A stretch of 64,000 nucleotides of DNA from a bacterium. Lineage in GTDB: Bacteria; Bacillota_I; Bacilli_A; RFN20; CAG-826. The stretch is taken from contig CAVJPS010000012.1 of the NCBI GenBank assembly GCA_963651465.1, forward strand, positions 66,179 to 130,178, read 5' to 3'. The translations under genes and the position numbers were made by a program. This document shows, in pieces, positions 3-25,927 of this stretch. Numbering within the stretch: position 1 is the stretch's first letter; every line of letters begins with the position of its first letter. The notes under the pieces were generated by a model, which was not told the DNA's origin, searched no databases, and worked only from the letters and a program-made list of their open reading frames with translations.

Positions 3-1787
3 GAAGATGAAATTAATTATTTATTTAACCAAATAGGAAGTTTAATTGAAAAAGGAGTAGATTTAAACAATATTTATATTTACCCTGTTGAAGACGAATA
101 TAAGAAGATATTAGTTAAGTATATGAATTTTCATAATATTCCAATGGAACTAGGTGAAAATTATTATTTAAGTGAATCACCTATATTTAAGTGGTTTATT
201 TCTCGTTATGAAGCTGATGGCTCTAGTGAAGAAATTATTCTAGAAGAAGCAATAAATGCCTTTAACGATAAATATAATGCTTGCAATGCTATAACTGAAA
301 TTATTAATCAAGTTAACACTTTAAAAATTTCAAAAAAAGAAAAAATAGAATTAATTAAGTATAAAGCTAGTATTAAAAAATTAGATAATATACATTATAG
401 AAAATCAATTAAAATGACAAATAATACGTATTTTGAAAAAGGCGATTATTTGTTTGTTTTAGGTTTTAATTTAAAATCTTTTCCAATTATTAAGAAAGAT
501 AATGATTATTTATCTGATTGTGAAAAAGAAAATCTTGGATTAAATACATCAAGTGATGAAAATATGATTAATAAAGAAAAACTCATTAATTTACTTAATT
601 CATTTGATAAAGATCATTTAATAATTACTTTTGGTGACAGAACCGTAAATACTAAGAATTATAAATCAACTATTATTCAGGATTTAAAGTATGAAGTAAA
701 AAATGGAGTAATTGATAATAGAAGATATTCTACTCGTTTAGCAAGATATGAATGTAGTAAAGAAAAAGAAGAATATTTACTTTATAGGCATAAAGGAAAA
801 CATTTAAATGCTTTTTCTGATAAAGAACTAGAATTTAAAGAATACGATAATAATTTTAAATGGGAAGGTACACCTAAATTTGAAATTAAAAAAATAGCAT
901 ATACTTCTTTAAATGATTATTTTAAATGCCCTTTTATGTATTATTTAAGTTACATGTTAAATGTATCAGATTTTGAAGGTAATTTTAATTCTAATTTAGG
1001 TACGTTTGTACATGAAATTCTAGAAAAAAATGTTAAAAATGAAACTTTTGATTTTGATGATTTTAGACAAAAGTATGAAGATTTCTTTAAGACTAATAAA
1101 GAAAAATTTCTTGTAAATGAATGTCGTCCTGCTATTTATGCAATGGTTAAATTCAACTACGATTTATCTAAAATTAGTTCCTTCAATGAAATAAAGACAG
1201 AACAAGAACTTAATAGTAAATTAAATGATGTAACTATTGAAGGTAAAATAGATAGGCTTTATGTAAATAGTGAGAATAAGTACATTGCAATTGTTGATTT
1301 TAAAACAGGTAAAGAAAAATTTGACTACAAAAAAGTTCCTTATAATTTTAGTATGCAATTACCTATTTATTCCTACTTGGTTAATGAAAAATATAAAGAC
1401 TTTATGTTAATAGGACTTTTTATTCAAAATGTGTTTGACAAATCAAATAATAGATATAGAGGTGTCATATTAAACGATGAAGAAATTGTAAAAAAATTAG
1501 ATAATACTTATGGGAAAGATCATGATGGAGTATATGTTTCTAATAAAGAATCTGTATCATTATCTAATGATGAAATTGTAGCCTTGGGTAACAATGCAAA
1601 ACAAAGTATTATTGATGCAATTAATTCCATCAAAAGCGGTGAATTTCCTATTACTCAAAAATATATTGATGGTAAAGATGAATCATGCAAATATTGTAAT
1701 TTCAAAGATATATGTTTTAAAACAAATAAAAATAAGATTGATTTAGATGAAAAAAAAGATACGGAAGGAGCTGATAATAATGAGTGA
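3..1787 (+). CDS. addB: ATP-dependent helicase/nuclease subunit B (AddB/RexB-like), C-terminal part. The reading frame is open from the window edge, so the 5' end lies upstream of the window.
   Basis: The frame is open from nt 3 with no stop before the first Met at 123. The C-terminus carries a RecB-family nuclease motif (GKIDRLYV...IVDFKTGK) and a Cys cluster (CKYCNFKDIC) typical of the AddB Fe-S nuclease domain. It lies directly upstream of, and overlaps, a UvrD-like addA. Confidence 0.6.
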   Translation, partial: EDEINYLFNQIGSLIEKGVDLNNIYIYPVEDEYKKILVKYMNFHNIPMELGENYYLSESPIFKWFISRYEADGSSEEIILEEAINAFNDKYNACNAITEIINQVNTLKISKKEKIELIKYKASIKKLDNIHYRKSIKMTNNTYFEKGDYLFVLGFNLKSFPIIKKDNDYLSDCEKENLGLNTSSDENMINKEKLINLLNSFDKDHLIITFGDRTVNTKNYKSTIIQDLKYEVKNGVIDNRRYSTRLARYECSKEKEEYLLYRHKGKHLNAFSDKELEFKEYDNNFKWEGTPKFEIKKIAYTSLNDYFKCPFMYYLSYMLNVSDFEGNFNSNLGTFVHEILEKNVKNETFDFDDFRQKYEDFFKTNKEKFLVNECRPAIYAMVKFNYDLSKISSFNEIKTEQELNSKLNDVTIEGKIDRLYVNSENKYIAIVDFKTGKEKFDYKKVPYNFSMQLPIYSYLVNEKYKDFMLIGLFIQNVFDKSNNRYRGVILNDEEIVKKLDNTYGKDHDGVYVSNKESVSLSNDEIVALGNNAKQSIIDAINSIKSGEFPITQKYIDGKDESCKYCNFKDICFKTNKNKIDLDEKKDTEGADNNE

Positions 1788-4700
1788 AACTAATTTTACT
1801 GATGACCAACTTAAAGCACGTGATGACTCAGGTCATAATATTATTGTGTCAGCTGGGGCAGGAAGCGGAAAAACTTTCGTATTAGCACATAGAGTTTTAC
1901 ATTTTATAACAGAAAAAAATTATAAGATTAAAGATTTCTTAATTGTTACTTTTACAGTCGAAGCTGCTGGAGAAATGAAAGAAAGAATAAGAAATTTCTT
2001 AACTGATGCTAATTCACCAGAAGCAAATTTAGTTGATGAAGCTGATATTGGAACATTTGATGCTTTAATGTTACAAATTGTTAAACGTTATCATAATTTG
2101 ATTAATGTATCTAATTCGATATCAATAATTGATAATTCAATTATAAAAACTAAAGTTATTGAATATATTAATGAAGAATTTGAAAGACTTTATGGCGTTG
2201 AAGGCAAAACACCTTTTAAAGACGGAGTTAGAAGAATGTCTGTCGAAAAAAAAGATGATAATGTAGTTGATTTAACTTATAAAATATATTCATATTTTGG
2301 TGATAAAAGTGATTATGAAATAGCAATTGATGAGTATTTTAATAAAGTTTATAATCCAACATTTATTAAAGATAATATCATTAAGTATTATGTAGATATA
2401 TTTCTTAATTTCCGTGAAAATCTTAAGGTTGGTATTGAAAGTTCACAATATTGGTCTAGTGCAAAAGGCATTGATTTTTATAATGAATTATACTCGGACT
2501 GGGAAAACTTTTTACTGTGTGAGGAAAACTATGATTCTTTAATGAATAATTTTCCTTTAAAATTTAGTTTTACAACCCAGCAATGCGATAATGAGGATGA
2601 TAAAAAAGCAAGAAACCAATTAAAAGACGATATCAATTTATTTAAAAATGATTATTTTTCAGAATTCAAAATGTTTAAAGATGAACAATCTATCATTGAT
2701 AGAATACTTGAAGATAAAGAATTTATACATGAACTTTTAAACGTTGTTAAAAATGTTCGTAAACGTATTGATGATTATAAAAAAGAATTAAATTGTTATG
2801 AATTTGTTGATATTTCTAATATGGCAATTAATCTTATTAAAAATAATGACGATGTTCGTAATGAACTTAAGAACAAATATAAGATGATTATGGTTGATGA
2901 GTATCAAGATACAAGTACTAGTCAAGAAGAATTTGTAAACTTAATTGGTAATAATAATGTTTATATGGTTGGTGATGTTAAACAATCAATTTACGGATTC
3001 CGTGGTGCACGACCTGAATTATTTCAAAATAAATACAATTTATATAAGAATGATTCGACTAAAGGAGAAGCAATTGATTTAAGATATAACTTCCGTTCTA
3101 GAGGTGAAGTTCTAACTGATATCAATAATATGTTTAAGACATTAATGGTTGAATCATTAGGTGGAATTAATTACACTAGAGATCATATTATCGGTATTGG
3201 AAATACTGATTATGCAAAAGTAGGTTCTAATGGACAAGATTGTCATTTTCAAATCCTTCCTTACGATTGTAAAGATAGAAATGGCAATAGTGAAATTGAA
3301 GCAAATATTATAGTTAATGACATTATTGATAAAATGAATAGCAAATATCAAGTAATGGAAAAAGACAAATTACGTGATTGTAAGTTGAGCGATTTTTGTA
3401 TCTTGATAAGTACGACTACTGATTTTGAAACGTTTATTAAAGTATTTGAAGAAAGAGGAGTGCCTCTTAATACTTTATGTGATATTAAAATATCTGAACA
3501 CTTACAACCAGTTTATATTATTCAAAATATAATAAGAATGATTGATTATATAAAGAGCAATAAAGAAAAAGATTCTTTATTTAATCATTCATATACTTCA
3601 ATTGCTCGTTCATATATATTTGAATATAGTGACGATAGAATATATCAAGTAATTACTAATCATGATTTTGATAATGATGAACTATACTGTACTTTTAAAT
3701 CTATCATAGATAATAACTTAGATGAAAAGTTATCTACTATTCTTCAAAAAATTTTATATGAAATTGGTTTATACGATAAACTATCTAAATTAGGTGACAT
3801 TAAGAGTTTTGAATACTTATATGATAATCTTATTTCAAATGTTGTAATTATGGAAAAGATGAATTATTCAATAACAAACATCATTGATTATTTTGAAGAT
3901 TTAAAAAACGAAGACAATAAGGCAAAAATTACTGGAATAAAAAAGAATATTGATAGTGTAAATTTAATGACTATTCATAAATCTAAAGGACTAGAATTTA
4001 ATATTATTTATTATCCTTGTTTAAGTAAAACTAATTTCTTTGGTAGGTCAAAAGGTGATACTAAAATAGATTTGTATGGCGTTTCTTTTAAAAGTAGTAG
4101 TGAGAACCCTCTCAGCCCTGTTTTAAAATTTGAAAATAATATTAATACTATCAGTGAAAAGATAAGACTTTGGTATGTTGCGTTAACCCGTGCTAAAGAA
4201 AAAATGATATTTATCTATAAAGTTAGTAATGGTGTTAAAAAACTTGAAAAAGCAGGAGCAATGGTGCACTTATTAAAATACTCACTTCAAGATAATTGTT
4301 TTCCATCTATTGGAATTTTAGATGTACCAAAGAATAGCACTTTAAATCTTAAAGAAGATAATTCATCTAATAATGAAAAATTCATTATAAAAGATCTTCC
4401 TATTAATAAAGAAGAAATCGAAATCAAAAAAGCTAGTAAAGAAATAAAGAGTAATGTTAATTATGATGCATTAACATTTGGTACTCAATTACACTTTATT
4501 ATGGAAGTATTTGATTTTAAGAAAAAAGATTTTTCTATGTTCGATGAAAAAAATAAAAAATATAAAGATATTGTAGAAAAATTTATTAATTCACCATTAC
4601 TAAAAGATATTGATAAAAAGAATTGTGAGTTATTCCGTGAATTCTCATTTAATGATGAAAAGAATAACACTCATGGTATTATCGACTTATTTATTAAATA

Positions 4701-4866
4701 TGATGATCATATTGATATTATCGATTATAAAACTAAAGAGATTAGTGATTCTTTATATGATACTCAATTACATGTTTATCGTGATTATTTACAAACAATA
4801 TCTAATTTGCCAATTAATATGTATTTATATTCTTTAACAACTGGAGAATATAGAAAAGTAGAATAA
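1780..4866 (+). CDS. addA: ATP-dependent helicase/nuclease subunit A (AddA/RexA): a UvrD-like SF1 helicase with a C-terminal RecB-type nuclease domain.
   Basis: Walker A motif VSAGAGSGKTF, helicase motifs DEYQDT and GDVKQSIYGFRGA, and a C-terminal nuclease motif GIIDLFIKYDD...IIDYKT. The ribosome-binding site GGAAGGAG sits 10 nt before the ATG at 1780. The ORF track's alternative start at 1747 is in the same frame. Confidence 0.8.
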   Translation: MSETNFTDDQLKARDDSGHNIIVSAGAGSGKTFVLAHRVLHFITEKNYKIKDFLIVTFTVEAAGEMKERIRNFLTDANSPEANLVDEADIGTFDALMLQIVKRYHNLINVSNSISIIDNSIIKTKVIEYINEEFERLYGVEGKTPFKDGVRRMSVEKKDDNVVDLTYKIYSYFGDKSDYEIAIDEYFNKVYNPTFIKDNIIKYYVDIFLNFRENLKVGIESSQYWSSAKGIDFYNELYSDWENFLLCEENYDSLMNNFPLKFSFTTQQCDNEDDKKARNQLKDDINLFKNDYFSEFKMFKDEQSIIDRILEDKEFIHELLNVVKNVRKRIDDYKKELNCYEFVDISNMAINLIKNNDDVRNELKNKYKMIMVDEYQDTSTSQEEFVNLIGNNNVYMVGDVKQSIYGFRGARPELFQNKYNLYKNDSTKGEAIDLRYNFRSRGEVLTDINNMFKTLMVESLGGINYTRDHIIGIGNTDYAKVGSNGQDCHFQILPYDCKDRNGNSEIEANIIVNDIIDKMNSKYQVMEKDKLRDCKLSDFCILISTTTDFETFIKVFEERGVPLNTLCDIKISEHLQPVYIIQNIIRMIDYIKSNKEKDSLFNHSYTSIARSYIFEYSDDRIYQVITNHDFDNDELYCTFKSIIDNNLDEKLSTILQKILYEIGLYDKLSKLGDIKSFEYLYDNLISNVVIMEKMNYSITNIIDYFEDLKNEDNKAKITGIKKNIDSVNLMTIHKSKGLEFNIIYYPCLSKTNFFGRSKGDTKIDLYGVSFKSSSENPLSPVLKFENNINTISEKIRLWYVALTRAKEKMIFIYKVSNGVKKLEKAGAMVHLLKYSLQDNCFPSIGILDVPKNSTLNLKEDNSSNNEKFIIKDLPINKEEIEIKKASKEIKSNVNYDALTFGTQLHFIMEVFDFKKKDFSMFDEKNKKYKDIVEKFINSPLLKDIDKKNCELFREFSFNDEKNNTHGIIDLFIKYDDHIDIIDYKTKEISDSLYDTQLHVYRDYLQTISNLPINMYLYSLTTGEYRKVE

Positions 4867-4922
4867 GATGTAATAATAAAATCATTGTGATAAAATGATA
4901 TTATAGATTGGGGTGTAAGATA

Positions 4923-5534
4923 ATGAGTGATATGGATTTAGGTGAAACATTTAAACTCGTTGAGTATAAAAATGGTTTATGCCCAATTTGTGGTTCTAAA
5001 GTAAATAATGAAGAATATGTGTTATGTGAAATGTGTGTTCATCGTGTAAAAAAAAGTGCTCTTTACACACGTGAAGAGCCAACTATTGCACGTGAATTAT
5101 CGCGAATTAGTAATCTTGCTAATGGTTTTGACGATAAAGCATTAACACATGAATTATCACTTCATTATTACAAACTTTTAGAAAGTACTGCTAAAGACGC
5201 TAATGAATTAGCATATATGCTTGCAACAGTTGTAATATATGTATTACGAGAAATACAAGGTCGAGTTGACGAAGACGATGATAACTTTGCTTGTATAGTT
5301 GACTATTTTGGTGAATTATTTCATTTTGCTCAACCAGAAGAACTTGTAAGACAAGTACATCTTGAAAATGATGAATTATATGCAAAGATTATTGATATCT
5401 TTGAAAGATTATCAATAAGAGATACGATTTCGTTAATTACTCTTACATGTGCATGTGTATCTCTAGCGTACGAATATGATCTTAATATTAATGCATATGA
5501 ATTATTAGTAGGAATATTAAGGGATAATTTTTAA
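4923..5534 (+). CDS. Hypothetical protein with an N-terminal CxxC...CxxC zinc-ribbon.
   Basis: ORF with the N-terminal motif CPICGSKV...CEMCVHRV; no other recognisable domain. The ORF track start is a TTG at 4908; the first ATG is at 4923. Confidence 0.45.
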   Translation: MSDMDLGETFKLVEYKNGLCPICGSKVNNEEYVLCEMCVHRVKKSALYTREEPTIARELSRISNLANGFDDKALTHELSLHYYKLLESTAKDANELAYMLATVVIYVLREIQGRVDEDDDNFACIVDYFGELFHFAQPEELVRQVHLENDELYAKIIDIFERLSIRDTISLITLTCACVSLAYEYDLNINAYELLVGILRDNF

Positions 5535-5638: not shown

Positions 5639-6547
5639 ATGAAACGTATAGGAATTATTGGTTTAGGACACAATGCAAAATACTATAAAGATGGGTTTTA
5701 TAATTCATGTATGCTAGATTTAGTAGCAGTATGTGATAAAGATAAAAGCTCACCTTCTTTTTTAAGTTTTAAATCTTACGAATTCTATACTGATTACCTT
5801 AAAATGATTTCTATTGAAATGCTTGATTATGTATTAATTGCAACTGAACCTTCTAAACATTATGAAATAGCAAAGAAATGTTTAGAAAAAGGAGTAAATG
5901 TAATTATTGAAGCTCCCGTTGGCATGTCATATGATGAAACAACATATTTGATTAATTACGCTAAAAAGAATGCATTATTGTTTGATGTTATTAACCATAC
6001 AGAAAACTATTCGGAAGTATCATATATTAAAGAACACATTAATGAATATGGAACATTAAAAGATATTTATATTACGGTCAATCACCCATTTTCAAAAAAT
6101 GGTAAAAATATAGATAAAGAATATGCTAATCTTGACGGATGTTATTATTACGATGCATATGAGATATTTGATTTACTTTCTAATTTCTTACCACTTAAGA
6201 AGATTATATTAATGGATAAGAATATAAAAAAAGATTCTTCTACAAACGATGATATATATGTTTGTTTAGATTTATATATTGATGGTGTTAATGTACATAT
6301 AATATTTGACTGGACTAATAATTCGACTTTAATTAATTCTAAATTTGTATTTAGTAAAAATATTGTTAATATTTGTCACTCATCTCAAATAATTACAATT
6401 AATGTTCGCGAGCAAGTTAATTGTAAAACTAAAAAAGAAAAATACACCGAATATTATGAAAAATACTTGAGTAATTACATTGGTAAAGTATCATACGATC
6501 ATATATTAAATATTCATAAGATAATGTTCACAATGAAAGATTTATAA
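5639..6547 (+). CDS. Gfo/Idh/MocA-like NAD(P)-binding oxidoreductase.
   Basis: N-terminal Rossmann motif RIGIIGLGHNAKYY and a 'KGVNVIIEAPV' segment like the EKP motif of the family. The C-terminal half is divergent. Confidence 0.5.
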   Translation: MKRIGIIGLGHNAKYYKDGFYNSCMLDLVAVCDKDKSSPSFLSFKSYEFYTDYLKMISIEMLDYVLIATEPSKHYEIAKKCLEKGVNVIIEAPVGMSYDETTYLINYAKKNALLFDVINHTENYSEVSYIKEHINEYGTLKDIYITVNHPFSKNGKNIDKEYANLDGCYYYDAYEIFDLLSNFLPLKKIILMDKNIKKDSSTNDDIYVCLDLYIDGVNVHIIFDWTNNSTLINSKFVFSKNIVNICHSSQIITINVREQVNCKTKKEKYTEYYEKYLSNYIGKVSYDHILNIHKIMFTMKDL

Positions 6548-6573
6548 CGTTCACAAAAATGTGAACGTTTTTC
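6546..6573 (+). terminator. Rho-independent terminator.
   Basis: Stem aacgttcaca / tgtgaacgtt (10 bp) with an AAAA loop and T-run; it overlaps the stop codon. Confidence 0.6.
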
Positions 6574-6619
6574 TTTAATTTACCTATGTTAAGTGATAAA
6601 ATAAATTGAGGTGTTTTAA

Positions 6620-9600
6620 ATGAACTATAAACAATCTGATTATGATTTACTTTTAGTAACTCGTTCAAAATTACGAATTCGTTATCGTGACGCAAAGGGA
6701 AAAGAACCTATTATATGTTCGGATGAAGCTTTAAAAAACTTAGCTATTCGCAAACCATTTTTTAAAAAAGAATTAGCATATATTCCTGGTTTAGGTACTG
6801 AGTTTATGAATACTTATGGCGATGAATTTATGAAAGTATTACGTAAAATCAATAACGATAATATGGAAGTAAATACATTAAATGCTGAACATATTAATAT
6901 TTTAAAAAAATACGAAGCAAGATTAATTAACCTTAATCGTCGTAATAGATTACTTTGTACAAATACAATAAAATCAAAATATGGCTTTGATTTATATGAA
7001 GCCCAAGATGCATCTAAAATTGAAGATTTTATATTACGTAAAAACGATACTAATAAAGTTACACTTTTAAGTTATACCTCAAAAAACAATCCAGTTATTA
7101 AAGATATTTCTAGAAGATTAAGAACATTATTACGTGAAACAAATAAAGATATAAAGGAAAACGGTACTAACGATTTATATATTGGCTATCCTTTTATTGA
7201 AGGTAAAATAGTTAAAGAAGATTTTATTATAAGAGCACCTTTAGTTTTATTCCCAGTTAAAATTAAAGAAACTTCAACAAAAATTGAAATGCTTATTGAC
7301 GATAAAAGAGATGTCAAATTTAACTCAAATTTATTCTTAGCATTTATGGGCTTTAATAATGTTTCAAATATTGAAATTCCTGAAATGACTTTAGAAAAGA
7401 TTGAACCATTTAACTTTATTAATCAAGTTGCAGACTTCTACAAACCTACGGGACTTAAGTTTGAAAGAGTATTGGATATTTTTGGAATGTTTCAAAATTA
7501 TAGCTATGAAATGGCAAATGAATTAGTAAAGCCAAACGAATTTAGATTAATGAATAATGCAATTCTTGGTGATTTTCCATTTTTCTCAAGTTCTATTCAA
7601 AGTGATATTAAGCGTTTAATCAATCAAAAATATGTTACAAATATTGTTTATGATTTATTAATTGACACTGATACAGTTGATGTTCTTGATAATAGTAATT
7701 CAAGTGTTAACGAGAATTATACATTTAATGAAGATGAACATTGCTATATTAATTCTCTTGATTACGCTCAAGAAGGAGTTTTAGCAAAAGTTGCAAATAA
7801 TGACCGTTTAGTTATTCAAGGTCCACCAGGAACTGGTAAATCTCAAACAATCACATCTATTGTTACTGATGTTGTTTCTAAAGGTAAAAATGTTTTAGTT
7901 GTTTCTCAAAAAAGAGCAGCTTTAGAAGTTATACATAATAGATTAGGCGAATTATCAAAATACGCTGTTATGGTCACTGATTTACAAGATAAACAAGGTT
8001 TCTATAATCAAGTTGCGTCTGCTATTATGTGCAAAGAAAAAAATTCATTTGATGAAACTACATATAAAGATATATCATCTAAAGTTAAGTTTTTCTTAAG
8101 TGAAGCTGAGGATATTAGAAAAGCACTTATTAATAATGTTAGTGATCCTGATAAAACAGATATGACATATGTTTTTGAAATGAATCACGATAACTTTATT
8201 ACCAAAGAAAAAGATAAGGAATATGAAAAGTATTTTGAATTTTCAAATAAATTCCATAATCAAACATTAGAATCATTAAAGTTTGAAGACTATGTGAATT
8301 TTTATAAAGTATTTAATGAGGGTCATAACTTAGAACTATTTAAGGAATATATTGAATATAAATTAGATAGTGGATGGTTTGTAAGTTTAAAGAAAGATTT
8401 ACCAGCAAAAGAACTTGCAAAGTTACAACAAGAAGTTACTATCTTTGTTAATAAATCGGAAGAATTACAAAAAGCTCATGGATTGTTTAAAAAATGGCGT
8501 TTACGTCGTGGACTTAAAAAAGCATTACAAAATATTATGGCTCAATTCTTTGTTAAGAGCGTAGACTATGATCATTTTGTAACAATCGCTCCTAAACTTC
8601 TTGAAGGTTTACCAAAATATCGTGATATTTGTGTAGCGTATGCAGCAATACATAACTTTGACCATAACACAATTATGTATGGTAATATGCTTTTTATGAT
8701 TGCTAAGCATTATAAAGTTGATCTTACTACAGCTAATAAATATTATTTTGATTATCTTGCATATACTTATATTAATGTATTTGAAGCGAATAATTCATAT
8801 GTATATGGTTTAATGAAAAACTATAATGAATTAGTAGCAAGTATTAAAGTCACTAATAATAAGAAAATGGAAATGGGTAAAGCTAAATTCGTTGATTATA
8901 TGAATACTTTAATGACATGGAATTCATGTTACGAAAGTAAATATAATGAAGTTAAACATTTTAAGGATTCAACTAAACAACCTTCTATAGCAAAGGTATT
9001 TGAAAAATATGATTTTGAATTATTATCTAATATTCGTATTTGGTTAATGACTCCTGAAGTAGTATCAGAAGTATTACCATTTAAAGCTGGTTTATTTGAT
9101 TATGTAATATTTGATGAAGCTTCCCAATTATATGTTGAGAAAGGTATTCCTTCAATATATCGTGGTAAAAACGTCATTATTGCTGGTGATAATAAACAAC
9201 TTCGTCCTTCTAGTTTTGGATTTACTAAGATTGACGATGACGATGAAGAAGATTTAGCAGTATCTCTTGATGAAGAAAGTTTACTTGACCTTGCTAGATT
9301 TAAATATCCTCAAACAATGTTAAATTATCATTATCGTTCTTTATATGGTGAACTTATTAACTTCTCAAACTTTGCTTTCTATGATGCAAAACTAAATATT
9401 GCACCTAATATAGAAGAATGCAATATTCCCCCAATTGAAACTTTAAAAGTAGAAAATGGTGTTTGGGATAAACGCGCAAATAAAGAAGAAGCATTAAGAG
9501 TAGTTGCACTTATAAAAGATTTATTAAATAATCGTAAACATAATGAAACAATAGGAGTTATTACATTTAACTCTACACAAATGAATTTAATTCAAGATAT

Positions 9601-10339
9601 GTTAGAAAATGAATGTAGTAACGATAATGAATTCAATTTATTACTAAACAAAGAATACAATAGAATCGAAGATGGCGAAGATAAATCTATCTTTATTAAA
9701 AATATTGAAAATGTTCAAGGTGATGAAAGAGATATTATTATTTTCAGTATTGGATATGCAAAAGATCCTAAAGGAAAAATTATTCATAATTATGGTTGGT
9801 TAAATCAATCTGGTGGGGAAAATAGATTAAATGTTGCTATTACTAGAGCTAAACGTAAGATCTATATAGTATATTCATTAGACCCAATTTTATTAAATGT
9901 TGATGGCTTAAAAAATAACGGACCAAAGATTTTTAAGAAATATCTAGAATACGCCGAAGCAGTATCAAAAGGTGATAAAGAATTAGCTAGGTCTATTCTT
10001 ACTTCATTTACAAATGGTAATAATAGATATGATGTTTACAATAATACAGCCTTGAATTTACAACAAGTATTGAAACAAAAAGGAATTGAAAGTGAACTTA
10101 ATGTTGGAGTAGGTACATACTTTATTGATTTAGCTATTAAAAAGGATAACAAATATATTCTTGGTATTGAATTTGACGATGCATTCTCAAGATTTGAAAA
10201 TGCACGCGAAAGAGAAATTCATCGCCGAAGATTCCTTGAAAGTAAGGGCTGGAATATAATGAGATTATTCGGTGCTAATTATTGGCGATATCACGAAGAT
10301 ATTATTGAAAATATTATTAAATACGTTGAAAAGAAATAA
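6620..10339 (+). CDS. Large SF1 (Upf1/DNA2-like) helicase with an N-terminal HRDC-like domain and a C-terminal DUF559/Vsr-like endonuclease domain. It is a helicase-nuclease fusion and resembles single-gene Hhe-type defence candidates.
   Basis: Walker A VIQGPPGTGKSQTITSIV. Walker B-like IFDEASQL. Motifs VIIAGDNKQLRP and YRS...FSNFAFYD of the AAA_11/AAA_12 type. An arginine-finger region GGENRLNVAITRAKRKIYIV. A C-terminal DUF559 pattern IDLAI...GIEFDD...AREREIHRRRFLESKGWNIMRL. Confidence 0.7.
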   Translation: MNYKQSDYDLLLVTRSKLRIRYRDAKGKEPIICSDEALKNLAIRKPFFKKELAYIPGLGTEFMNTYGDEFMKVLRKINNDNMEVNTLNAEHINILKKYEARLINLNRRNRLLCTNTIKSKYGFDLYEAQDASKIEDFILRKNDTNKVTLLSYTSKNNPVIKDISRRLRTLLRETNKDIKENGTNDLYIGYPFIEGKIVKEDFIIRAPLVLFPVKIKETSTKIEMLIDDKRDVKFNSNLFLAFMGFNNVSNIEIPEMTLEKIEPFNFINQVADFYKPTGLKFERVLDIFGMFQNYSYEMANELVKPNEFRLMNNAILGDFPFFSSSIQSDIKRLINQKYVTNIVYDLLIDTDTVDVLDNSNSSVNENYTFNEDEHCYINSLDYAQEGVLAKVANNDRLVIQGPPGTGKSQTITSIVTDVVSKGKNVLVVSQKRAALEVIHNRLGELSKYAVMVTDLQDKQGFYNQVASAIMCKEKNSFDETTYKDISSKVKFFLSEAEDIRKALINNVSDPDKTDMTYVFEMNHDNFITKEKDKEYEKYFEFSNKFHNQTLESLKFEDYVNFYKVFNEGHNLELFKEYIEYKLDSGWFVSLKKDLPAKELAKLQQEVTIFVNKSEELQKAHGLFKKWRLRRGLKKALQNIMAQFFVKSVDYDHFVTIAPKLLEGLPKYRDICVAYAAIHNFDHNTIMYGNMLFMIAKHYKVDLTTANKYYFDYLAYTYINVFEANNSYVYGLMKNYNELVASIKVTNNKKMEMGKAKFVDYMNTLMTWNSCYESKYNEVKHFKDSTKQPSIAKVFEKYDFELLSNIRIWLMTPEVVSEVLPFKAGLFDYVIFDEASQLYVEKGIPSIYRGKNVIIAGDNKQLRPSSFGFTKIDDDDEEDLAVSLDEESLLDLARFKYPQTMLNYHYRSLYGELINFSNFAFYDAKLNIAPNIEECNIPPIETLKVENGVWDKRANKEEALRVVALIKDLLNNRKHNETIGVITFNSTQMNLIQDMLENECSNDNEFNLLLNKEYNRIEDGEDKSIFIKNIENVQGDERDIIIFSIGYAKDPKGKIIHNYGWLNQSGGENRLNVAITRAKRKIYIVYSLDPILLNVDGLKNNGPKIFKKYLEYAEAVSKGDKELARSILTSFTNGNNRYDVYNNTALNLQQVLKQKGIESELNVGVGTYFIDLAIKKDNKYILGIEFDDAFSRFENAREREIHRRRFLESKGWNIMRLFGANYWRYHEDIIENIIKYVEKK

Positions 10340-10349
10340 TCAAACAAAA

Positions 10350-10380
10350 AAAGTATAAGATTTTGGTCTTATACTTTTTC
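10350..10380. terminator. Bidirectional rho-independent terminator between convergent genes.
   Basis: Hairpin agtataaga-ttttgg-tcttatact flanked by A-run and T-run. Confidence 0.6.
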
Positions 10381-10383
10381 ATA

Positions 10384-12405
10384 TTAATTGAGTTTTTGGT
10401 CTGATTTATTATCTTCTTTTGGTGGTTCGTAACCATCTTTGTTATATTCTTTAACATACTTTAAGAATTCTTTTTCTGGTAAAGCTTCAGAATAGAAAAA
10501 TCCTTGATGTCGGTATAAGCCTAAGTTTTCAAGATAAGTTTTGTGTTCTTCAGTTTCAACACCTTCCACAATAGAGGATAAATTAAGAGATTTAATTAAA
10601 TTAACAATTGTTAAGAAAATTGAATTCTTAAATTCACTAGGGTCTGCATTTACTGCAGTATATAAAACAGTTTTATCAATTTTTACCGTGTTAACAGGTA
10701 AATCAAAGATATATGAAAAGTTAGCGTAACCACTACCGAAATCATCAATTGCGATACGGAAACCATTTTCAACAAATCTATTAATAGTTTGTTTAATAGT
10801 AGTAATGGATGAAGATTCTTCTGTTTCAGTAATTTCGATAATAATAGCATCAGGATTTACCTTATATTCATTTACAATAGCAAGAAATTTATCAGCAAGA
10901 GTAGCATCTTGACATTGACGCATAGAAATATTAATACTTATATGTCTTACTCCTAGTTTTTGAACTTTGCCGGTTGCTAAGAATTTAACTACTCGGCGGA
11001 ATATTTGTTCACCAAGTTCATGAATAAGACCATTCTTTTCAGCAATTCTAACGAATAAATCAGGAGAAATATATTCTTCGGTAATAGGATCTTTTAATCT
11101 ACATAATGCTTCACAAGATTTAACAAGATGATGTTGAGCAGAAATAATTGGTTGATAATAAACTTCTATTGTATTATTTTTAACTGCATCAAGTAGTACT
11201 CGTTCTGTACGACGTTCTTGATTAATCTTCTTGTAGAATGATTCAGTAGGACAATAAATTGTATTGTGATTTTCATAACGTGATTTAGCAAAATAATGAT
11301 GTGCTGCTTCAATTGCGTTATTAATACCATCTAAAGTTGTAAGATATGGATTTCTTTCAAGATAACATAATTTAACATTAGTCTTAATTTGAATACCATT
11401 AGAGAAAAGATTTTTTTCAAATTTATTAATGTACAATTCAAGCATTTGATCAGTTAACCTTTTGTGTTTGATAACGATAATAAATGTTCCTGAACCATTA
11501 GAAAACACAGGATTAGGTTTAAATTCTTTTTTAATTTCAGAGGAAAATTTTCTAGTAAAACTTGATACAATTGTAGCATTGTAGTTTTCGGTAAGCTCAT
11601 TATATGATTCAAATCTAATAAATAATAACGATATTGGAATACCTTCTTTTAATGCTTCTTCGACATATAATTTAAGTGCTTTACCATAAAATGTATTTGA
11701 AATTTTATCAACATAATGATTAGGTAGTTCAATTGAAATAAATAGAACTGCGCAAGCAATAGTAGCAGCTGTCGGGATTAAAACGATATTTTTATTTCTT
11801 AATAGTCTATACACAATATTAATAGAAATAGCAATAAGTTCAGCAAGTGCGTAGGAAATATATGCTGTACGTCTTTTTGCATTGAAATGATTATTGAATA
11901 ATCCAAATAATGCAGCAGTAATAACATAAATGCCTGGAATAATATACATTAGAAGATATAAGGGACCATGCTCAAATACATGAGTTTCTGGATTTACATA
12001 GAATAAGCTGTTATTTGTAAATGGAATTGCAAGTAATAAAATAGTCATTACAAATTGTGGTATGTAGAACAACCAACATTTTTTTAGATTTTTATGAGTA
12101 TAGAATCCTATAGAAGTCATTACGTATAAGAAGAAAAGCATTGTATTAGCACAAGCAATAAAGACATATAAAATACTCATACCGCGAATTAAAAAAATTG
12201 GGTATGCTTTAGGATTCCAAGTGAAAATGCCACATATTATACTAAGACATAAACCAGTAATGTTAAAAGTAATTAATAATTTAAAGAATTTACTTCTTAG
12301 AATTGGTAAGTGCATCATTCTAGCGTAGTAAATTGAAATAAGAATCATAAAAGCGAGTGAACAAACAGTATAGGAAATTACGTCTGGCAAATGATGGTCT
12401 AACAT
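10384..12405 (-). CDS. Membrane sensor protein: N-terminal polytopic (MASE-like) domain, a degenerate GGDEF-like module and an intact EAL (c-di-GMP phosphodiesterase) domain.
   Basis: About 9 predicted TM helices in the N-terminus. EAL motifs EALCRL, NISMRQ, EITE, DDFGSGYANFSY, KIDKT, EGVETE and QGFFYS are present. No GG(D/E)EF signature (NGSGT instead). The ORF track start is a TTG at 12423; an ATG at 12405 is preceded by GAAGGTG. Confidence 0.7.
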   Translation of the reverse strand: MLDHHLPDVISYTVCSLAFMILISIYYARMMHLPILRSKFFKLLITFNITGLCLSIICGIFTWNPKAYPIFLIRGMSILYVFIACANTMLFFLYVMTSIGFYTHKNLKKCWLFYIPQFVMTILLLAIPFTNNSLFYVNPETHVFEHGPLYLLMYIIPGIYVITAALFGLFNNHFNAKRRTAYISYALAELIAISINIVYRLLRNKNIVLIPTAATIACAVLFISIELPNHYVDKISNTFYGKALKLYVEEALKEGIPISLLFIRFESYNELTENYNATIVSSFTRKFSSEIKKEFKPNPVFSNGSGTFIIVIKHKRLTDQMLELYINKFEKNLFSNGIQIKTNVKLCYLERNPYLTTLDGINNAIEAAHHYFAKSRYENHNTIYCPTESFYKKINQERRTERVLLDAVKNNTIEVYYQPIISAQHHLVKSCEALCRLKDPITEEYISPDLFVRIAEKNGLIHELGEQIFRRVVKFLATGKVQKLGVRHISINISMRQCQDATLADKFLAIVNEYKVNPDAIIIEITETEESSSITTIKQTINRFVENGFRIAIDDFGSGYANFSYIFDLPVNTVKIDKTVLYTAVNADPSEFKNSIFLTIVNLIKSLNLSSIVEGVETEEHKTYLENLGLYRHQGFFYSEALPEKEFLKYVKEYNKDGYEPPKEDNKSDQKLN

Positions 12406-12713
12406 GGTTTCACCTTCTTTCAATTACTGAGGGCTTAAAAATATTTATCATTAATTTAATTCTCGTATATATATTATAAACCAAATATAATATAATTGTG
12501 ACAATATAAAGTGTAAATAAATGGTAATGTGTTTGAAACATCAAAATATACTAGTTTTAAAAGCAAAAAAAACTTGTTTTTTTAATTTATCAAATAGAAA
12601 ACAAAAAAATAAAAAAAACGCTAAATTTATGCTATAAAACGATATTTACGATGTTGAAAATTTCTCTTTTTTAATTTAAACTAATTGTAAAGAAAGGTAG
12701 GTTTTTTTACAAC

Positions 12714-13897: not shown

Positions 13898-14746
13898 TTA
13901 TTGAATTGATGATCTTAAATCAATTTGGGAACTATCATCACATGTAATTGCAGATAAATAAGTTTCATTAATATAAGTTGAAACTGCGTCTGATAATAAA
14001 GCATCAGTTAAAACATCAATTTTTGCTTTATATGTTTCGTTATTTAAATAATCTTGTTTACGGACTGCTAAGACATTTGCTTTATTACTTACTTGTTCAG
14101 GATCGTCTTCTTTTGCAACTTGTCTTTCACTAGGAACATTACCAGTATAGGCAGTATTACATGGAAGTAATGCAAAATTATAGTCACCCATTGATGAAAC
14201 TAACAAACTTTCCTCAATTAATGTAACTTTCTTACCATCTTCTGAGTACCATGAGGAACCTTCAAATGTAAGTGCGGTTTTATCCTCGTTAACTGGTATT
14301 GTATCTAAAACACCTTTAGCCTTTAATAATTCAAAGGCTCTAATTGCATTTGATGTATCACTACAAATTTCAAATGTAACACCTTCTGTTAAGGCACCAG
14401 AAAAATTGCCACGATAAATACCAAGTGGTTCATAGTGAACTTTACATGTAGCGATTAATTCTTTTTCATCAGTTCCTTCATATGTTAATAAATATGGAAT
14501 GTGTTGAAAATAGTTTGCGTCGTAATCTTTGTTAGCAACAGCGTCGTTTTGTACTGTCCAGTCTAAAACTTTGACGTTTAAAGTATAACCTTGTTCTTTT
14601 AAAATACCTTTAACACAATTTGATAGTATTTCTGCGTGTGGAACATCTGATGCACAAACTTTAATAATTTTATCATTGTTACATCCTGTAAAAAATAATG
14701 TGAATAAACTTGCACTTGTTAATAATAATTTTGAAAACTTTTTCAT
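13898..14746 (-). CDS. metQ: Methionine ABC transporter substrate-binding lipoprotein (NlpA/MetQ family).
   Basis: Lipoprotein signal with lipobox LFFTGC. It is the last gene of an ABC ATPase-permease-binding-protein operon that sits behind a Met-type T-box. Confidence 0.75.
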   Translation of the reverse strand: MKKFSKLLLTSASLFTLFFTGCNNDKIIKVCASDVPHAEILSNCVKGILKEQGYTLNVKVLDWTVQNDAVANKDYDANYFQHIPYLLTYEGTDEKELIATCKVHYEPLGIYRGNFSGALTEGVTFEICSDTSNAIRAFELLKAKGVLDTIPVNEDKTALTFEGSSWYSEDGKKVTLIEESLLVSSMGDYNFALLPCNTAYTGNVPSERQVAKEDDPEQVSNKANVLAVRKQDYLNNETYKAKIDVLTDALLSDAVSTYINETYLSAITCDDSSQIDLRSSIQ

Positions 14747-15414
14747 TTTAATATTCTCCTTTTATCAATTTTTTTAGCAATAAACAATCCTGATTCTTGA
14801 ATAATTTGAACTAAAATAATTACTACAATAATTAGGATCCAGAAAGTTGCACTTTCTAAATAGTTACCAGTATGACGAGTATAATATGACCAAATACCAC
14901 TAATTAAACCACCAGCACCAATGTTATATGCAAATGAAGTATATGTGAGTATTGAAACACTACTGACAGCAAATCCTGAAATTAATGAAGAACGTGCTTC
15001 AGGAAGTAATACTTTCATAATAATTTGGAAATTAGAAGCCCCTAATGATTTAATAGCTTCTATTTCTCCAGCTGGTACTTCGTTTAAAGATTGTTCTACC
15101 ATACGAGCAACAAAACCAAAGGCTGAAACAATTAATGGTAATAAGATTGTGTACCATTCTCCAGTACCAACACCAAAGATTTTACGAGTAGCTGGCATAC
15201 ATAAGACTACTAAAACTAAACATGGAATGGAACGTAAAATATTAACGATTAAACCAATAATAAGATTTAGAGGTCTGTTGGGACATAAACCTTTTTTGGA
15301 TGTTACATTTAATAAAATACCAATTGGTAAAGCGATAATATAAGAACATATAGAAGAAATGATAGTCATAGCGAGAGTTTGCCAGGTTAGAGTGAATAAA
15401 TTAGCCCAATCCAT
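14743..15414 (-). CDS. metI: Methionine ABC transporter permease.
   Basis: 5 TM helices with an EAA-like loop (IEAIKSLGAS...IMKVLLPEA). Its ends overlap metN and metQ. Confidence 0.8.
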   Translation of the reverse strand: MDWANLFTLTWQTLAMTIISSICSYIIALPIGILLNVTSKKGLCPNRPLNLIIGLIVNILRSIPCLVLVVLCMPATRKIFGVGTGEWYTILLPLIVSAFGFVARMVEQSLNEVPAGEIEAIKSLGASNFQIIMKVLLPEARSSLISGFAVSSVSILTYTSFAYNIGAGGLISGIWSYYTRHTGNYLESATFWILIIVVIILVQIIQESGLFIAKKIDKRRILK

Positions 15415-16372
15415 TTTGATCTACCTCCTCATATAGAATTTTTTTAAGTTTTAAATACTTTATTAATTTCTTAACTTCTTGTTCATCGGTTGGCTTTTTA
15501 ATAATAAGTTGTCCATAAACTCTATTATCTACAACTCTTGAATCAGCGTAAACAATAGAAACTTGAATATGACAATCTTCAACAATATTAGCTAATAATG
15601 GAGTATCAATTTCACCATTAAAAATTAACTTAATATATTTTGAATTATCTAACTTAGTATTAACGTGACCTGAATAGATGAGCTTTTTAGCTATATCAGT
15701 TTTAGGTGATAAGAATACATCATATAATGGACCACATTCAACAATTTTAGAATGATCAATTATTGCAACCTTATTACATATTTCTTCAATTACAGACATT
15801 TGATGAGAAATAATAATAATTGTTAAATTAAGTGATTTGTTTAATTCTTTTAATAATTCAAGAATTTGTTTTGTTGTATCAGGATCTAACGCTGATGTTG
15901 CTTCATCACATAATAGAATTTTTGGGTTTGTCATTAATGCACGAGCAATTGCGACTCGTTGTTGTTGACCACCCGATAGTTGACTTGGATAAGAATCAAG
16001 TTTATCACTAAGACCAACTCTATTTAATAAATCAATAGCTTTTTGATGACTTTCATTATCGTGAACAATTTCACCAGCCAATTCAACATTTTTTAAGACT
16101 GTACGTTGTTGTAATAAATTGAATTGTTGAAAAATCATTGCTACATTACGACGGTATTCTCTTGTAAATGTTACTTTTTCACCTTTGTAATAAATAGAAC
16201 CTAAGTCATAATTTTCAAGTCCATTAATACAACGCACAAGAGTTGATTTACCAGCGCCGGATAATCCTAAAATTCCATAGATATCACCTTCGTTAATGGA
16301 TAAACTAACGTTATCTAACACAAGATGTTCACCAAAGACTTTAGAAAGATTCTTGATTTCTAATATATTCAT
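15401..16372 (-). CDS. metN: Methionine ABC transporter ATP-binding protein with a C-terminal NIL domain.
   Basis: Walker A GLSGAGKST, signature LSGGQQQRVAIARAL, Walker B LLCDEATSALD, and a C-terminal NIL-like extension. Confidence 0.85.
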   Translation of the reverse strand: MNILEIKNLSKVFGEHLVLDNVSLSINEGDIYGILGLSGAGKSTLVRCINGLENYDLGSIYYKGEKVTFTREYRRNVAMIFQQFNLLQQRTVLKNVELAGEIVHDNESHQKAIDLLNRVGLSDKLDSYPSQLSGGQQQRVAIARALMTNPKILLCDEATSALDPDTTKQILELLKELNKSLNLTIIIISHQMSVIEEICNKVAIIDHSKIVECGPLYDVFLSPKTDIAKKLIYSGHVNTKLDNSKYIKLIFNGEIDTPLLANIVEDCHIQVSIVYADSRVVDNRVYGQLIIKKPTDEQEVKKLIKYLKLKKILYEEVDQNGLG

Positions 16373-16382
16373 TTTTTGCTCC

Positions 16383-16690
16383 TTTCTGCTAGGGAAAGAA
16401 AAAAATCTCGCCCTATTGCTATTTCAGCTAAGGACGAGATATAAATAATAATATCACGTGTTACCACCTTAATTCACTTACTTAATCACTTAAGTAAGCC
16501 TCAAAGAGTACCAACATACTCATTTGCTATAACGGGCATACCCGATAAAGATTACATATCACCTTTATAGCTCCAAGGCCATGTTCAGTTCGTTTCTGTT
16601 ATCTTCTTTCACCAAACGAAGACTCTCTATAAACATAATTAAGAACTTACTCATCCTTTTCAACGCTTATGACTATATTTTAATGAAAAA
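16383..16690 (-). promoter_or_regulatory. T-box leader (tRNA-sensing riboswitch) upstream of metNIQ, with a transcription-terminator expression platform.
   Basis: Read on the minus strand, the conserved T-box sequence aattaaggtggtaacacgtg lies at about 16455-16476 (consensus AAUUAGGGUGGUACCGCG). It is followed by a terminator hairpin atctcgtcc...gggcgagat and T7 at 16399-16440. The upstream Stem-I region has an AGAGAG element and a loop containing AUG, the candidate specifier codon. Confidence 0.6.
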
Positions 16691-23815: not shown

Positions 23816-25927
23816 TTATTCTTTTAATACTAATTCATTATCGTAATACGTTAATGTATATTTTGTATCTGTTTTAATGTTGTTTCGTAAGATTGCATCT
23901 GCAATAAATGTTTCAATTTTATTTTGAATGAATCTTTTAATTGGTCTAGCACCAAAGTCTTCATTATAGGAAGAATCAATAATATATTTTTTAACACTTT
24001 CATCAAATGAAATATAATAATAATTTTCATTTAAACGTTTTGACAATTCGTTAAGCATTTTATCAACAATCTTAATTTGCATGTCTTTTGTTAAAGGATT
24101 AAAGTATACAATTTCATCAATTCTATTTAAAAATTCTGGTTTAAATGTTTTACGTAATAAAACATCTACGTCATTTAATCTACCATTTAAGATTTCTTGA
24201 GAACCTAAATTCGAAGTCATAATAATAATTGTATTTTTAAAATCTACAACTACACCTTGAGAATCAGTTAATCTGCCATCATCAAGTATTTGTAATAAAA
24301 GGTTAAAAATTTGTGGGTGAGCTTTTTCAATCTCATCGAATAAGATAATAGAATAAGGATTACGTTTTACAGGCTCGGTTAATTGACCACCATCTTCAAA
24401 TCCAACATATCCTGGTGGAGAACCAATTAAACGAGTAAATGTAAAGTCTTCCATATACTCAGACATATCTAATCTAATAATATGAGATTCACTATCAAAT
24501 AATGCTTCTGCAAGAGCTTTAGCAACTTCGGTTTTACCAACACCAGTTGGACCCATAAATAAGAATGAACCAATTGGTCTATGTTGATCTTTAATGCCTG
24601 CACGTTGACGTAATATTGCATCATTTACTAGATTAATAGCGTTATCTTGACCAATAACACGTTTTTCTAATGCTTCTTTTAAATTCAATACTTTTTCAGT
24701 ATCACCTTTCATAATACGTGAGACAGGAATATTTGTATTTTTTGCAACAATTTTTGCTATTTCGTCATTATCAACAACTTCACTTATAATTTCGTTATTC
24801 TTATTTTTAAGATCTATTTGTTCTAATGCTTTTTGTAGTTCAGGAATATCTTTATATTGTATTTCAGATGCTTTTTGATAATTTTGAGAATTAATAGCCT
24901 TTTCAAGCTCGAACTTCTTTTTATCCAAAGAGACTTTTAAATCTTTTTCTTTTTTAATAGATAGTTTTTCTTCGTTCCATTTTTTGACTAATTCTTCTTG
25001 TTTTTGATTTACGTCTGATAATTCGTTTTCTAATTGAATTAATCTTTTCTTGCTTGAATTATCGTCTTCTTTTTCTAAGGCTGCCTTTTCAATTTGTAAT
25101 TGTCTAATCTTACGATTTAATTCTTCAATATCAAATGGACTTGATTCCATATCAACTCGAATAGAAGCACAAGCTTGGTCAACTAAATCAATAGCTTTAT
25201 CAGGCAAATAACGATTTGTTATATATCTATTAGATAATGTAGCTGCCGCAACTAATGCGTCATCAGTAATTTTAACACCATGGTGAGCTTCAAATCTTTC
25301 TTTAATACCACGTAAGATAGAAATAGTATCAGCAACCGAAGGTTCACCAATCATGACAGGTTGGAAACGTCTTTCTAAAGCACGATCTTTTTCTATATAT
25401 TTTTTATATTCTTGAAGAGTAGTAGCACCAATACAGTTAATATCTCCACGAGCTAACATAGGTTTTAATATATTTGCTGCGTCCATAGCACCACTTGTTC
25501 TACCTGCACCAACAATTAAATGAATTTCATCAATAAATAAGATAATATTGTTTTCACTTTCTTTTAATTTGTTTAAAACATCTTTTAATCTTTCTTCGAA
25601 TTCACCTTGATATTTTGCACCAGCAATTAATGCTCCCATATCAAGTTCAAATATTTTTTTGTTCTTTAATGAAGTAGGAACGTCATCTTTTTCAATTCTT
25701 TGAGCAAGGCCCTCAATAATTGCTGTTTTACCAACACCAGGTTCGCCTAATAAAACAACATTATTTTTTGTTTTACGTGCTAAAACTTCTATGACTTTAC
25801 GAATTTCTTCATCACGACCTATTACAGGATCAATTTTGTTTTTTGCAACATCTTCGTTAACGATACGACCGTATTTATGGAAAACATCATCTTTTTGATT
25901 GGTAGAGTTACTATATGCGTTATTCAT
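23816..25927 (-). CDS. clpB: ClpB-type AAA+ disaggregase: two AAA modules plus a long coiled-coil M-domain, but no N-terminal domain.
   Basis: Walker A 1 GEPGVGKTA, Walker A 2 GPTGVGKTE, sensor GARP, and a roughly 120-aa coiled-coil between the AAA modules. At 703 aa it starts right before AAA-1, as in mollicute-type ClpB. Confidence 0.8.

Follow-up and report, generated by a model that had tools for sequence, protein, structure and literature searches.

A compact HRDC-bearing helicase–nuclease fusion encoded at a conserved chromosomal position in a CAG-826 bacterium

We analysed a stretch of 64,000 nucleotides, hereafter the window, from a bacterium of the lineage Bacillota_I, Bacilli_A, RFN20, CAG-826 (GenBank assembly GCA_963651465.1, contig CAVJPS010000012.1, positions 66,179 to 130,178 of the forward strand). 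The gene under study occupies 6620..10339 on the plus strand and encodes, from an ATG start, a protein of 1239 amino acids (aa) composed of an HRDC domain, a DUF4011 domain, a helicase of superfamily 1B (SF1B) and a Vsr-type nuclease. It is a genuine and complete single gene encoding a helicase–nuclease fusion that is distantly related to known anti-phage proteins but shorter than these, and, judged from its sequence, the enzyme looks fully functional. In the window lineage its inheritance is vertical and stable, and it is a resident of the chromosome, not an accessory gene carried on an island. Its product has a defence-family core, but in three or more distant lineages, among them an archaeal one, the gene behaves like part of the core chromosome; this poses a clear evolutionary question.

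Domain organisation and predicted structure

The N-terminus is a helical nucleic-acid-binding HRDC module (6620..6856, +; aa 1-79). Its Pfam match (PF00570, aa 30-74) is just over the gathering score, with 26.0 against 23.8 bits, and the segment has the five-helix HRDC fold. It is followed by DUF4011 (6884..7669, +; aa ~89-350; Pfam match aa 102-238, 43.6 bits), an alpha/beta domain with long beta-hairpins, which was modelled confidently and for which structure comparison gave no solved analogue. The original prediction, made from the sequence alone, had named an HRDC, an SF1 helicase and a Vsr-like nuclease module; Pfam domains and intact motifs bear out all three, and DUF4011 comes in addition.

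The first RecA domain (RecA1) of the helicase is split. Its N-terminal part (7745..8053, +; aa 376-478; AAA_11, 63.5 bits) carries the Walker A motif GPPGTGKSQT (aa 401-410), and its C-terminal part (9032..9196, +; aa 805-859) the Walker B motif DEASQ (832-836) and the motif GDxKQLRPS (856-864) in invariant columns. Between the two parts lies an all-helical insertion of ~325 aa (8054..9031, +; aa 479-804; model helices H100-H425), modelled with a predicted local distance difference test score (pLDDT) of 85-95; its length is kept, but its sequence is poorly conserved, with a consensus of mostly 'x' in an alignment of 32 sequences. The second domain, RecA2 (9275..9919, +; aa 886-1100; AAA_12, 79.4 bits, 3.3e-22), contains motif V (VQGDERD) and motif VI (GGENRLNVAITRAK). 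The motifs GPPGTGKSQ (401-409) and DEASQ (832-836) and the motif VI arginines R1069 and R1076 are invariant or nearly so among 32 aligned full-length homologues. Walker A, Walker B, motifs III, V and VI and the two-RecA fold are all present, as in Upf1-like SF1B helicases. The two RecA domains are joined by an acidic linker that is predicted to be disordered (9197..9274, +; aa 860-885; pLDDT <50, model residues 481-506). This linker (DDDDEEDL...EEESLLD), between the Walker B region and RecA2, is conserved; that it could be a DNA-mimicking autoinhibitory loop is pure speculation.

The C-terminal domain (10037..10327, +; aa 1140-1236) has a Vsr-type restriction-endonuclease fold and matches MTES_1575 (PF18741, aa 1148-1234) with 65.3 bits against a cut-off of 38.2. 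DUF559 (PF04480), to which it had originally been assigned, scores 18.6 bits, under its gathering score of 20.6; this Vsr-like family is related, but MTES_1575 is the better description. The label 'Vsr-like' was nevertheless right in substance, because Anantharaman et al. (2013, PMC3710099) introduced MTES_1575 as a new restriction-endonuclease domain of the Vsr family.

A structure model of aa 380-1239 (m45a4e00c1879, pLDDT 86) shows the split RecA1, the helical insertion, the disordered linker, RecA2 and a C-terminal nuclease unit with the element order helix, three strands, helix, strand. D1170 is located on the second strand of this unit and E1184-x-D1186 at the end of the third. Together with R1196 and R1198 these residues form a conserved pattern (D ... 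ExD plus RxR; the 32-homologue alignment), from which we infer that all five are catalytic. The sole notable deviation in the window lineage concerns D1199, which is E in the window protein and in the homologue P0002, and V in P0003.

The closest solved helicase cores, found by profile search and Foldseek (Foldseek E 1e-12 to 1e-9), are those of Aquarius, Senataxin/Sen1, IGHMBP2 (5e-16), Upf1 and Dna2. As most of these are RNA or RNA:DNA helicases, we considered an enzyme of the Upf1/Senataxin/IGHMBP2 type directed at RNA or R-loops. Its motor would move along RNA, alone or as one strand of a hybrid, and cutting of the RNA or hybrid would fall to the Vsr/RAP-like domain. HRDC domains occur in RNase D and Rrp6 too, the models of Mokosh MkoA match the window protein, and the RNA-associated RAP domain is the top match of the nuclease-domain profile in the PDB. 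That match is weak (E 0.11) and, like the next ones (EME1, 0.23; the DUF559-like 3hrl, 0.37), not significant. Dna2 is among the matching cores as well, and the nuclease belongs to a family of Vsr-type, DNA-acting restriction endonucleases (PMC3710099), so that we regard an RNA-directed enzyme as improbable.

A constant core with variable ends

Pfam analysis of long relatives revealed a constant core of DUF4011, AAA_11, the insertion, AAA_12 and MTES_1575, with ends that vary. A protein of 2026 aa from Enterobacteriaceae bacterium B14 (L065:8063-14143) carries an N-terminal Ser/Thr kinase domain (Pkinase, 6.5e-17) on this common core, a Variovorax relative an N-terminus of 520 aa without Pfam assignment, and a Bacteroidota relative (L044) a C-terminal WGR domain. 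The founding MTES_1575 protein was described with HEPN, transglutaminase and winged helix-turn-helix/DUF3320 as extra modules (PMC3710099). In the window protein the place of such a terminal module is taken by HRDC. A constant core with swapped terminal modules is the pattern known from conflict systems.

Some of the long relatives also have recurring neighbours. In five loci with proteins of 1800-2100 aa (L051, L056, L059, L067 and L078) a ClpB-like AAA_2 ATPase is encoded upstream and an unannotated protein of ~450 aa downstream, and in six others (L044, L055, L058, L066, L073 and L075) an M48-peptidase-like protein of ~400 aa is encoded upstream. These long relatives with conserved partner genes may be multi-gene systems.

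The N-terminal HRDC+DUF4011 module was searched against 1.84 billion representatives and was found in ~60 clusters (50% identity) at E <=1e-30 and in 221 at <=1e-10. Complete matches are almost all 1200-1260 aa long, and the HRDC-type proteins form a coherent, modestly sized subfamily. Its members bear only the NCBI names 'HRDC domain-containing protein' or 'DUF559 domain-containing protein'; the protein identical to that of the window in the public collection is P0001. A scan of the genome collection, for which the best 600 stretches were listed, served to find loci and is unfit for family counts or for claims of absence in any taxon.

Possible role

The role that we slightly favour, at a little under an even chance, is constitutive surveillance by a single protein that destroys foreign or aberrantly replicating DNA, an immunity like that of Hhe (NF042953, PADLOC PDLC02194); Hhe-type single-protein helicase–nucleases are validated anti-phage genes. 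In such a mechanism the HRDC, probably together with DUF4011, would dock on a DNA structure (a single-strand/duplex junction, a fork or a flap), as the RecQ HRDC suggests by analogy. The Upf1/Dna2-type SF1B motor would then hydrolyse ATP and move 5'->3' on one strand, the polarity expected from its family, and the C-terminal Vsr-type, Mg-dependent endonuclease, whose residues are conserved, would presumably nick or cleave the tracked DNA. Loading would most likely take place at a junction or where the DNA is single-stranded. Hhe itself is triggered by T7 class II DNA-metabolism genes, as a knockout screen suggests (bioRxiv 10.1101/2024.10.10.617714), which would fit sensing of DNA transactions, not recognition of a phage protein.

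Several lines of evidence weigh against this role, and the first concerns relatedness to the defence families. In NCBIfam the protein scores 496.5 bits (1.9e-148) with ProA (NF058533) and 347 bits (2.1e-103) with Hhe, and so misses the curated cut-offs of 1500 and 2000 bits, respectively. With PADLOC models it reaches 465 bits (1.4e-139) for the candidate system PDC-S37 (PDLC05009) and 248 bits (4.6e-74) for Hhe. The expected matches to defence-system models were thus obtained, all of them under the NCBIfam cut-offs where these are given. Six other relatives of the superfamily, which are 1247-2026 aa long and come from genomes of Bacteroidota, Bacillaceae, Proteobacteria and Clostridia, reach similar scores below the cut-offs, with 483-712 bits for ProA and 315-502 bits for Hhe. 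Because they score alike, the Hhe and ProA matches reflect a shared helicase–nuclease core and not membership. The 'Hhe type' of the original prediction therefore stands for the core architecture and not for the family; the window protein is also 600-700 aa shorter than the Hhe and ProA profiles. The sole experimental information in the superfamily is the anti-phage activity of Hhe, and a literature search found no primary publication for ProA and none for PDC-S37. Among plasmids, 579 records carry superfamily members, yet no match there covers >=80% of the window protein, and phage matches are negligible. The remaining adverse points come from the position and the conservation of the gene, treated in the following two sections.

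A resident gene in the window lineage

A ribosome-binding site, GAGGTG (6608..6613, +), was read directly from the sequence 6 nt before the ATG. Upstream of it, an intrinsic terminator of the preceding oxidoreductase gene (6546..6579, +; hairpin given as 6546-6569) consists of a 10-bp stem with four G-C pairs, followed by a T-tract. Downstream, a perfect 14-bp hairpin with an A-tract and a T-tract on its flanks (10348-10379) lies between two convergent stop codons. Its folding energy is -13.2 kcal/mol (z = -6.46), an equally good fold occurred in 0 of 200 shuffles, and it is a bidirectional terminator common to the helicase gene and the convergent EAL gene. With a terminator upstream and the hairpin between the convergent stops, the helicase gene is very probably monocistronic and transcriptionally isolated, as had been predicted.

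The EAL gene (10384-12423, -) is the downstream neighbour, and is followed by genes for a TetR regulator, methylglyoxal synthase (MGS) and a methionine ABC transporter under T-box control. On the upstream side the immediate neighbour is a GFO/IDH/MocA oxidoreductase gene (5639-6547), and beyond it come an open reading frame of 208 aa (4908-5534) and addAB (123-4866); the earlier placement 'between addAB and EAL' is correct for EAL, but addAB is further off. The T-box leader (16427-16672, -; Rfam RF00230, 130 bits) stands upstream of a metN-metI-nlpA operon (13898-16372, -). The AddB-like frame (123-1787, 554 aa) matches only the C-terminal ~540 residues of a 763-aa AddB in another locus (L001), and an in-frame stop is located upstream of it, inside the first 122 bases of the window; the N-terminal part of AddB may be missing, frameshifted or otherwise organised here.

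The composition of the helicase gene is native: its guanine-plus-cytosine content is 0.270 (window mean 0.293 +/- 0.031) and that of third codon positions 0.146 (window 0.153 +/- 0.034), and its codon-usage distance is the fourth lowest among 46 window genes. It lies near no defence or mobile-element genes, and nothing else in the 64-kb window looks like a defence island or a mobile element. Elsewhere, between 16000 and 64000, one open reading frame, which the aggregated output does not single out, matches the PADLOC candidate PDC-S13 (E 5.7e-69), and the other PADLOC matches in this part look like generic similarity to helicases or ClpB-type ATPases, ClpB being encoded at 23816-25927 (-).

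The slot itself, in the order oxidoreductase, helicase, EAL (on the minus strand), TetR and MGS, is kept in the two closest homologues, whose helicases are 73% and 57% identical to that of the window. Compared with the 73% relative, the neighbouring products are 35% (AddB), 42% (AddA), 45% (EAL), 61% (oxidoreductase), 66% (the 208-aa frame), 79% (TetR) and 91% (MGS) identical, and the helicase is thus better conserved than AddA, AddB, EAL and the oxidoreductase. Operationally, a defence-island gene was taken as one located among defence or mobile-element genes and at a variable position; in the window the neighbours are housekeeping genes and the position is conserved, with one empty site among the relatives, and across the family the picture is mixed. 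With no defence gene nearby, native composition and this synteny, the assertion that the gene is typical of accessory or defence loci does not hold here.

The same figures bear on the notion that the gene is a remnant, once used in defence and now inactive or in decay, to which the change of the nearly invariant D1199 might point. The frame is fully open and the core residues of helicase and nuclease are all intact; the syntenic orthologue is 73% identical although AddA has diverged to 42% between the two loci, which indicates strong purifying selection on the helicase. We rejected the remnant on these conservation data, which effectively refute it.

A fourth lineage, L170, was found through its oxidoreductase gene and is sister to the 57% relative (oxidoreductase 61%, EAL 64%, a 71-aa open reading frame 83%). 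It has a clean empty site, where the oxidoreductase and EAL genes are only a 40-bp terminator apart, which shows that the helicase gene is dispensable. Since the gene is at this position in three of the four sampled lineages, the window's included, a single loss in L170 is the most economical explanation. A JGI metagenome scan anchored on MGS returned 80 loci with MGS identity <=83%, none of them syntenic, and was uninformative. Of the two outcomes that the original prediction had named as contrary to it, conservation at this position in all relatives was therefore seen in part only, and a lack of model matches combined with a degenerate nuclease was not seen, as the models match and the nuclease residues are not degenerate.

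Other lineages and genomic contexts

Stable positions were also found far from the window clade. In Methanomassiliicoccales the gene is located, in five loci, beside genes for a P-type ATPase, diphthamide synthase, rpL44e and PAC2, and the helicases are 69-87% identical, against 53-74% for the neighbours. In a clade of Clostridia it stands beside secA-yhhN-comF-recD2-cmk with 60-66% identity, ComF and Cmk being 46-61% and RecD2 and SecA 77-86% identical. A sister group without HRDC is syntenic with an HHH_3 gene in 13 loci of the Cytophagales type, and in Pseudomonas aeruginosa a large DUF4011 gene was treated as core, being present in every isolate (PMC10250203).

Such behaviour would suit a housekeeping enzyme of genome maintenance, resembling Dna2 or RecQ plus a nuclease in function. 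Its substrates would be flaps, forks that have stalled or reversed, or recombination intermediates, all on the chromosome of the host cell itself, and Hhe and ProA would be specialised offshoots. We see this as a serious contender, though short of probable. Besides the deep synteny in the four groups named (the window clade, Methanomassiliicoccales, the Clostridia clade and the Cytophagales-type group), conservation equal to or above that of flanking core genes and native composition speak for maintenance, as do a helicase core resembling Dna2 and an HRDC resembling that of RecQ. The neighbours with a part in DNA metabolism recur, namely addAB, recD2, cmk, tmk-holB and thyA. The gene is kept, among the matches listed, in the reduced genomes of Izimaplasma, Acholeplasma and Haloplasma, and a DUF4011-MTES_1575 protein is present in Mycoplasma bovis and M. 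hominis. As for a replacement of RecQ, no second HRDC or DEAH helicase was found in the window, the single stretch to which that search extended. Maintenance is, however, at odds with the clean loss in L170 and with a patchy distribution, since ~60-220 clusters (50% identity) with the N-terminal module are far below what a universal repair gene would give. It is also at odds with the fact that all experimentally named relatives are anti-phage. A more specific proposal, that the HRDC short forms are an unrecognised prokaryotic maintenance helicase–nuclease of the Dna2/RecQ kind, retained at the level of orders in several Firmicutes lineages and in Methanomassiliicoccales, from which Hhe and ProA were derived by adding sensor domains, we find rather unlikely.

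Two further observations do not sit well with maintenance. In a crude neighbour-joining tree the archaeal clade is nested within the bacterial HRDC-type sequences, and therefore an old inter-domain transfer into gut archaea is indicated. Secondly, genes of defence or mobile-element type adjoin HRDC-type members in ~4 of 14 independent contexts: brxABC-pglX (BREX), a ThiF-E2-JAB (E1-E2-JAB) fusion, an SF1-DUF2726 helicase with helix-turn-helix (HTH) genes, and the Fic/HTH/Dam-type methyltransferase flank of the Clostridia clade. In the others of the ~14 the neighbours are housekeeping genes (rpoA-rplQ / ecfA, ldh / tmk-holB, the mraZ cluster, murJ and others), and several contexts consist of DNA-metabolism genes (addAB, recD2-cmk, tmk-holB), which again counts against a defence role. 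PADLOC models run over 139 neighbours of 19 family loci gave, in aggregated output, no recurrent defence family, and matches of AddA to GajB models were dominant.

Some individual loci deserve attention. In three Clostridia metagenome-assembled genomes (L165, L171 and L172) the helicase gene stands at a boundary, with one flank conserved (secA-yhhN-comF-recD2-x-cmk) and the other, of Fic, HTH and Dam-methyltransferase-type genes, different in each genome. The pattern echoes the P. aeruginosa DUF4011 gene, which flanks core defence hotspot 1 (PMC10250203). In a Candidatus Izimaplasma genome (L008:6490-13400) the gene interrupts the junction of rpoA-rplQ with a pair of genes for ABC ATPases resembling ecfA1-ecfA2. 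This junction of the ribosomal cluster is normally tightly conserved in Firmicutes. Among the archaeal loci, the helicases of L012 and L013 are only 41% identical to that of L006, with flanking core genes at 60-82% and the position unchanged; the helicase could have evolved faster here, or a xenologue could have taken its place at that site. A contig labelled Lachnospiraceae bacterium (L004, CAVHQB010000014.1) contains the archaeal markers diphthamide synthase, ribosomal L44e and PAC2, is syntenic with the Methanomethylophilaceae locus L006 and has a helicase 87% identical to it; the bin label is probably wrong and the contig archaeal.

On balance, the Hhe-like role was given preference because the only named relatives in any library searched are defence proteins, the terminal modules are swapped, defence-type genes adjoin ~4 of 14 contexts, superfamily members are found on plasmid records, the gene has passed between domains and it is dispensable. 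Either long-fixed 'innate immunity' genes are commoner than island-based searches suggest, or the defence family arose by recruitment of a repair enzyme; either outcome would bear on how PADLOC and DefenseFinder handle sub-threshold matches to Hhe and PDC-S37. The core-like evolution across bacteria and archaea is a testable lead to the function of these helicase–nucleases, and the short HRDC-bearing relative, which is compact, strongly conserved and modelled with a pLDDT of ~85, suits biochemical and structural work.

Comparison with known systems

Hhe is similar in being a single gene with DUF4011, an Upf1-like SF1 helicase and an MTES_1575/Vsr-type nuclease in this order. Its profile has 1797 positions against the 1239 aa of the window protein, and the best matching stretch covers only positions 1264-1681. 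Unlike Hhe, the window protein begins with an HRDC; neither the long N-terminal region of Hhe nor its C-terminal tail is present, and the gene is outside any defence island. ProA is the best-scoring named family and has the helicase–nuclease core in common; with 1903 positions in the profile and a best stretch of 1262-1705, the similarity is at superfamily level only. The strongest PADLOC match, PDC-S37, is made up of two stretches, the better of which covers 919-1340 of 1550 positions.

Among cellular enzymes, Dna2 has the same helicase core fold and motif set and likewise pairs its motor with a PD-(D/E)XK-type nuclease. The nuclease of Dna2 is N-terminal and RecB-like with an iron–sulphur cluster, whereas that of the window protein is C-terminal and Vsr-type, and sequence identity to Dna2, IGHMBP2, Upf1 and Senataxin is only 13-21%. 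RecQ, a 3'->5' helicase of superfamily 2 without nuclease, carries its HRDC at the C-terminus; in the window protein the HRDC precedes an SF1B motor. On profile scores and domain order, we class the window protein as a short, HRDC-bearing form, not described before, within the Hhe/ProA/PDC-S37 superfamily; it belongs to neither Hhe nor ProA, and probably not to PDC-S37 either.

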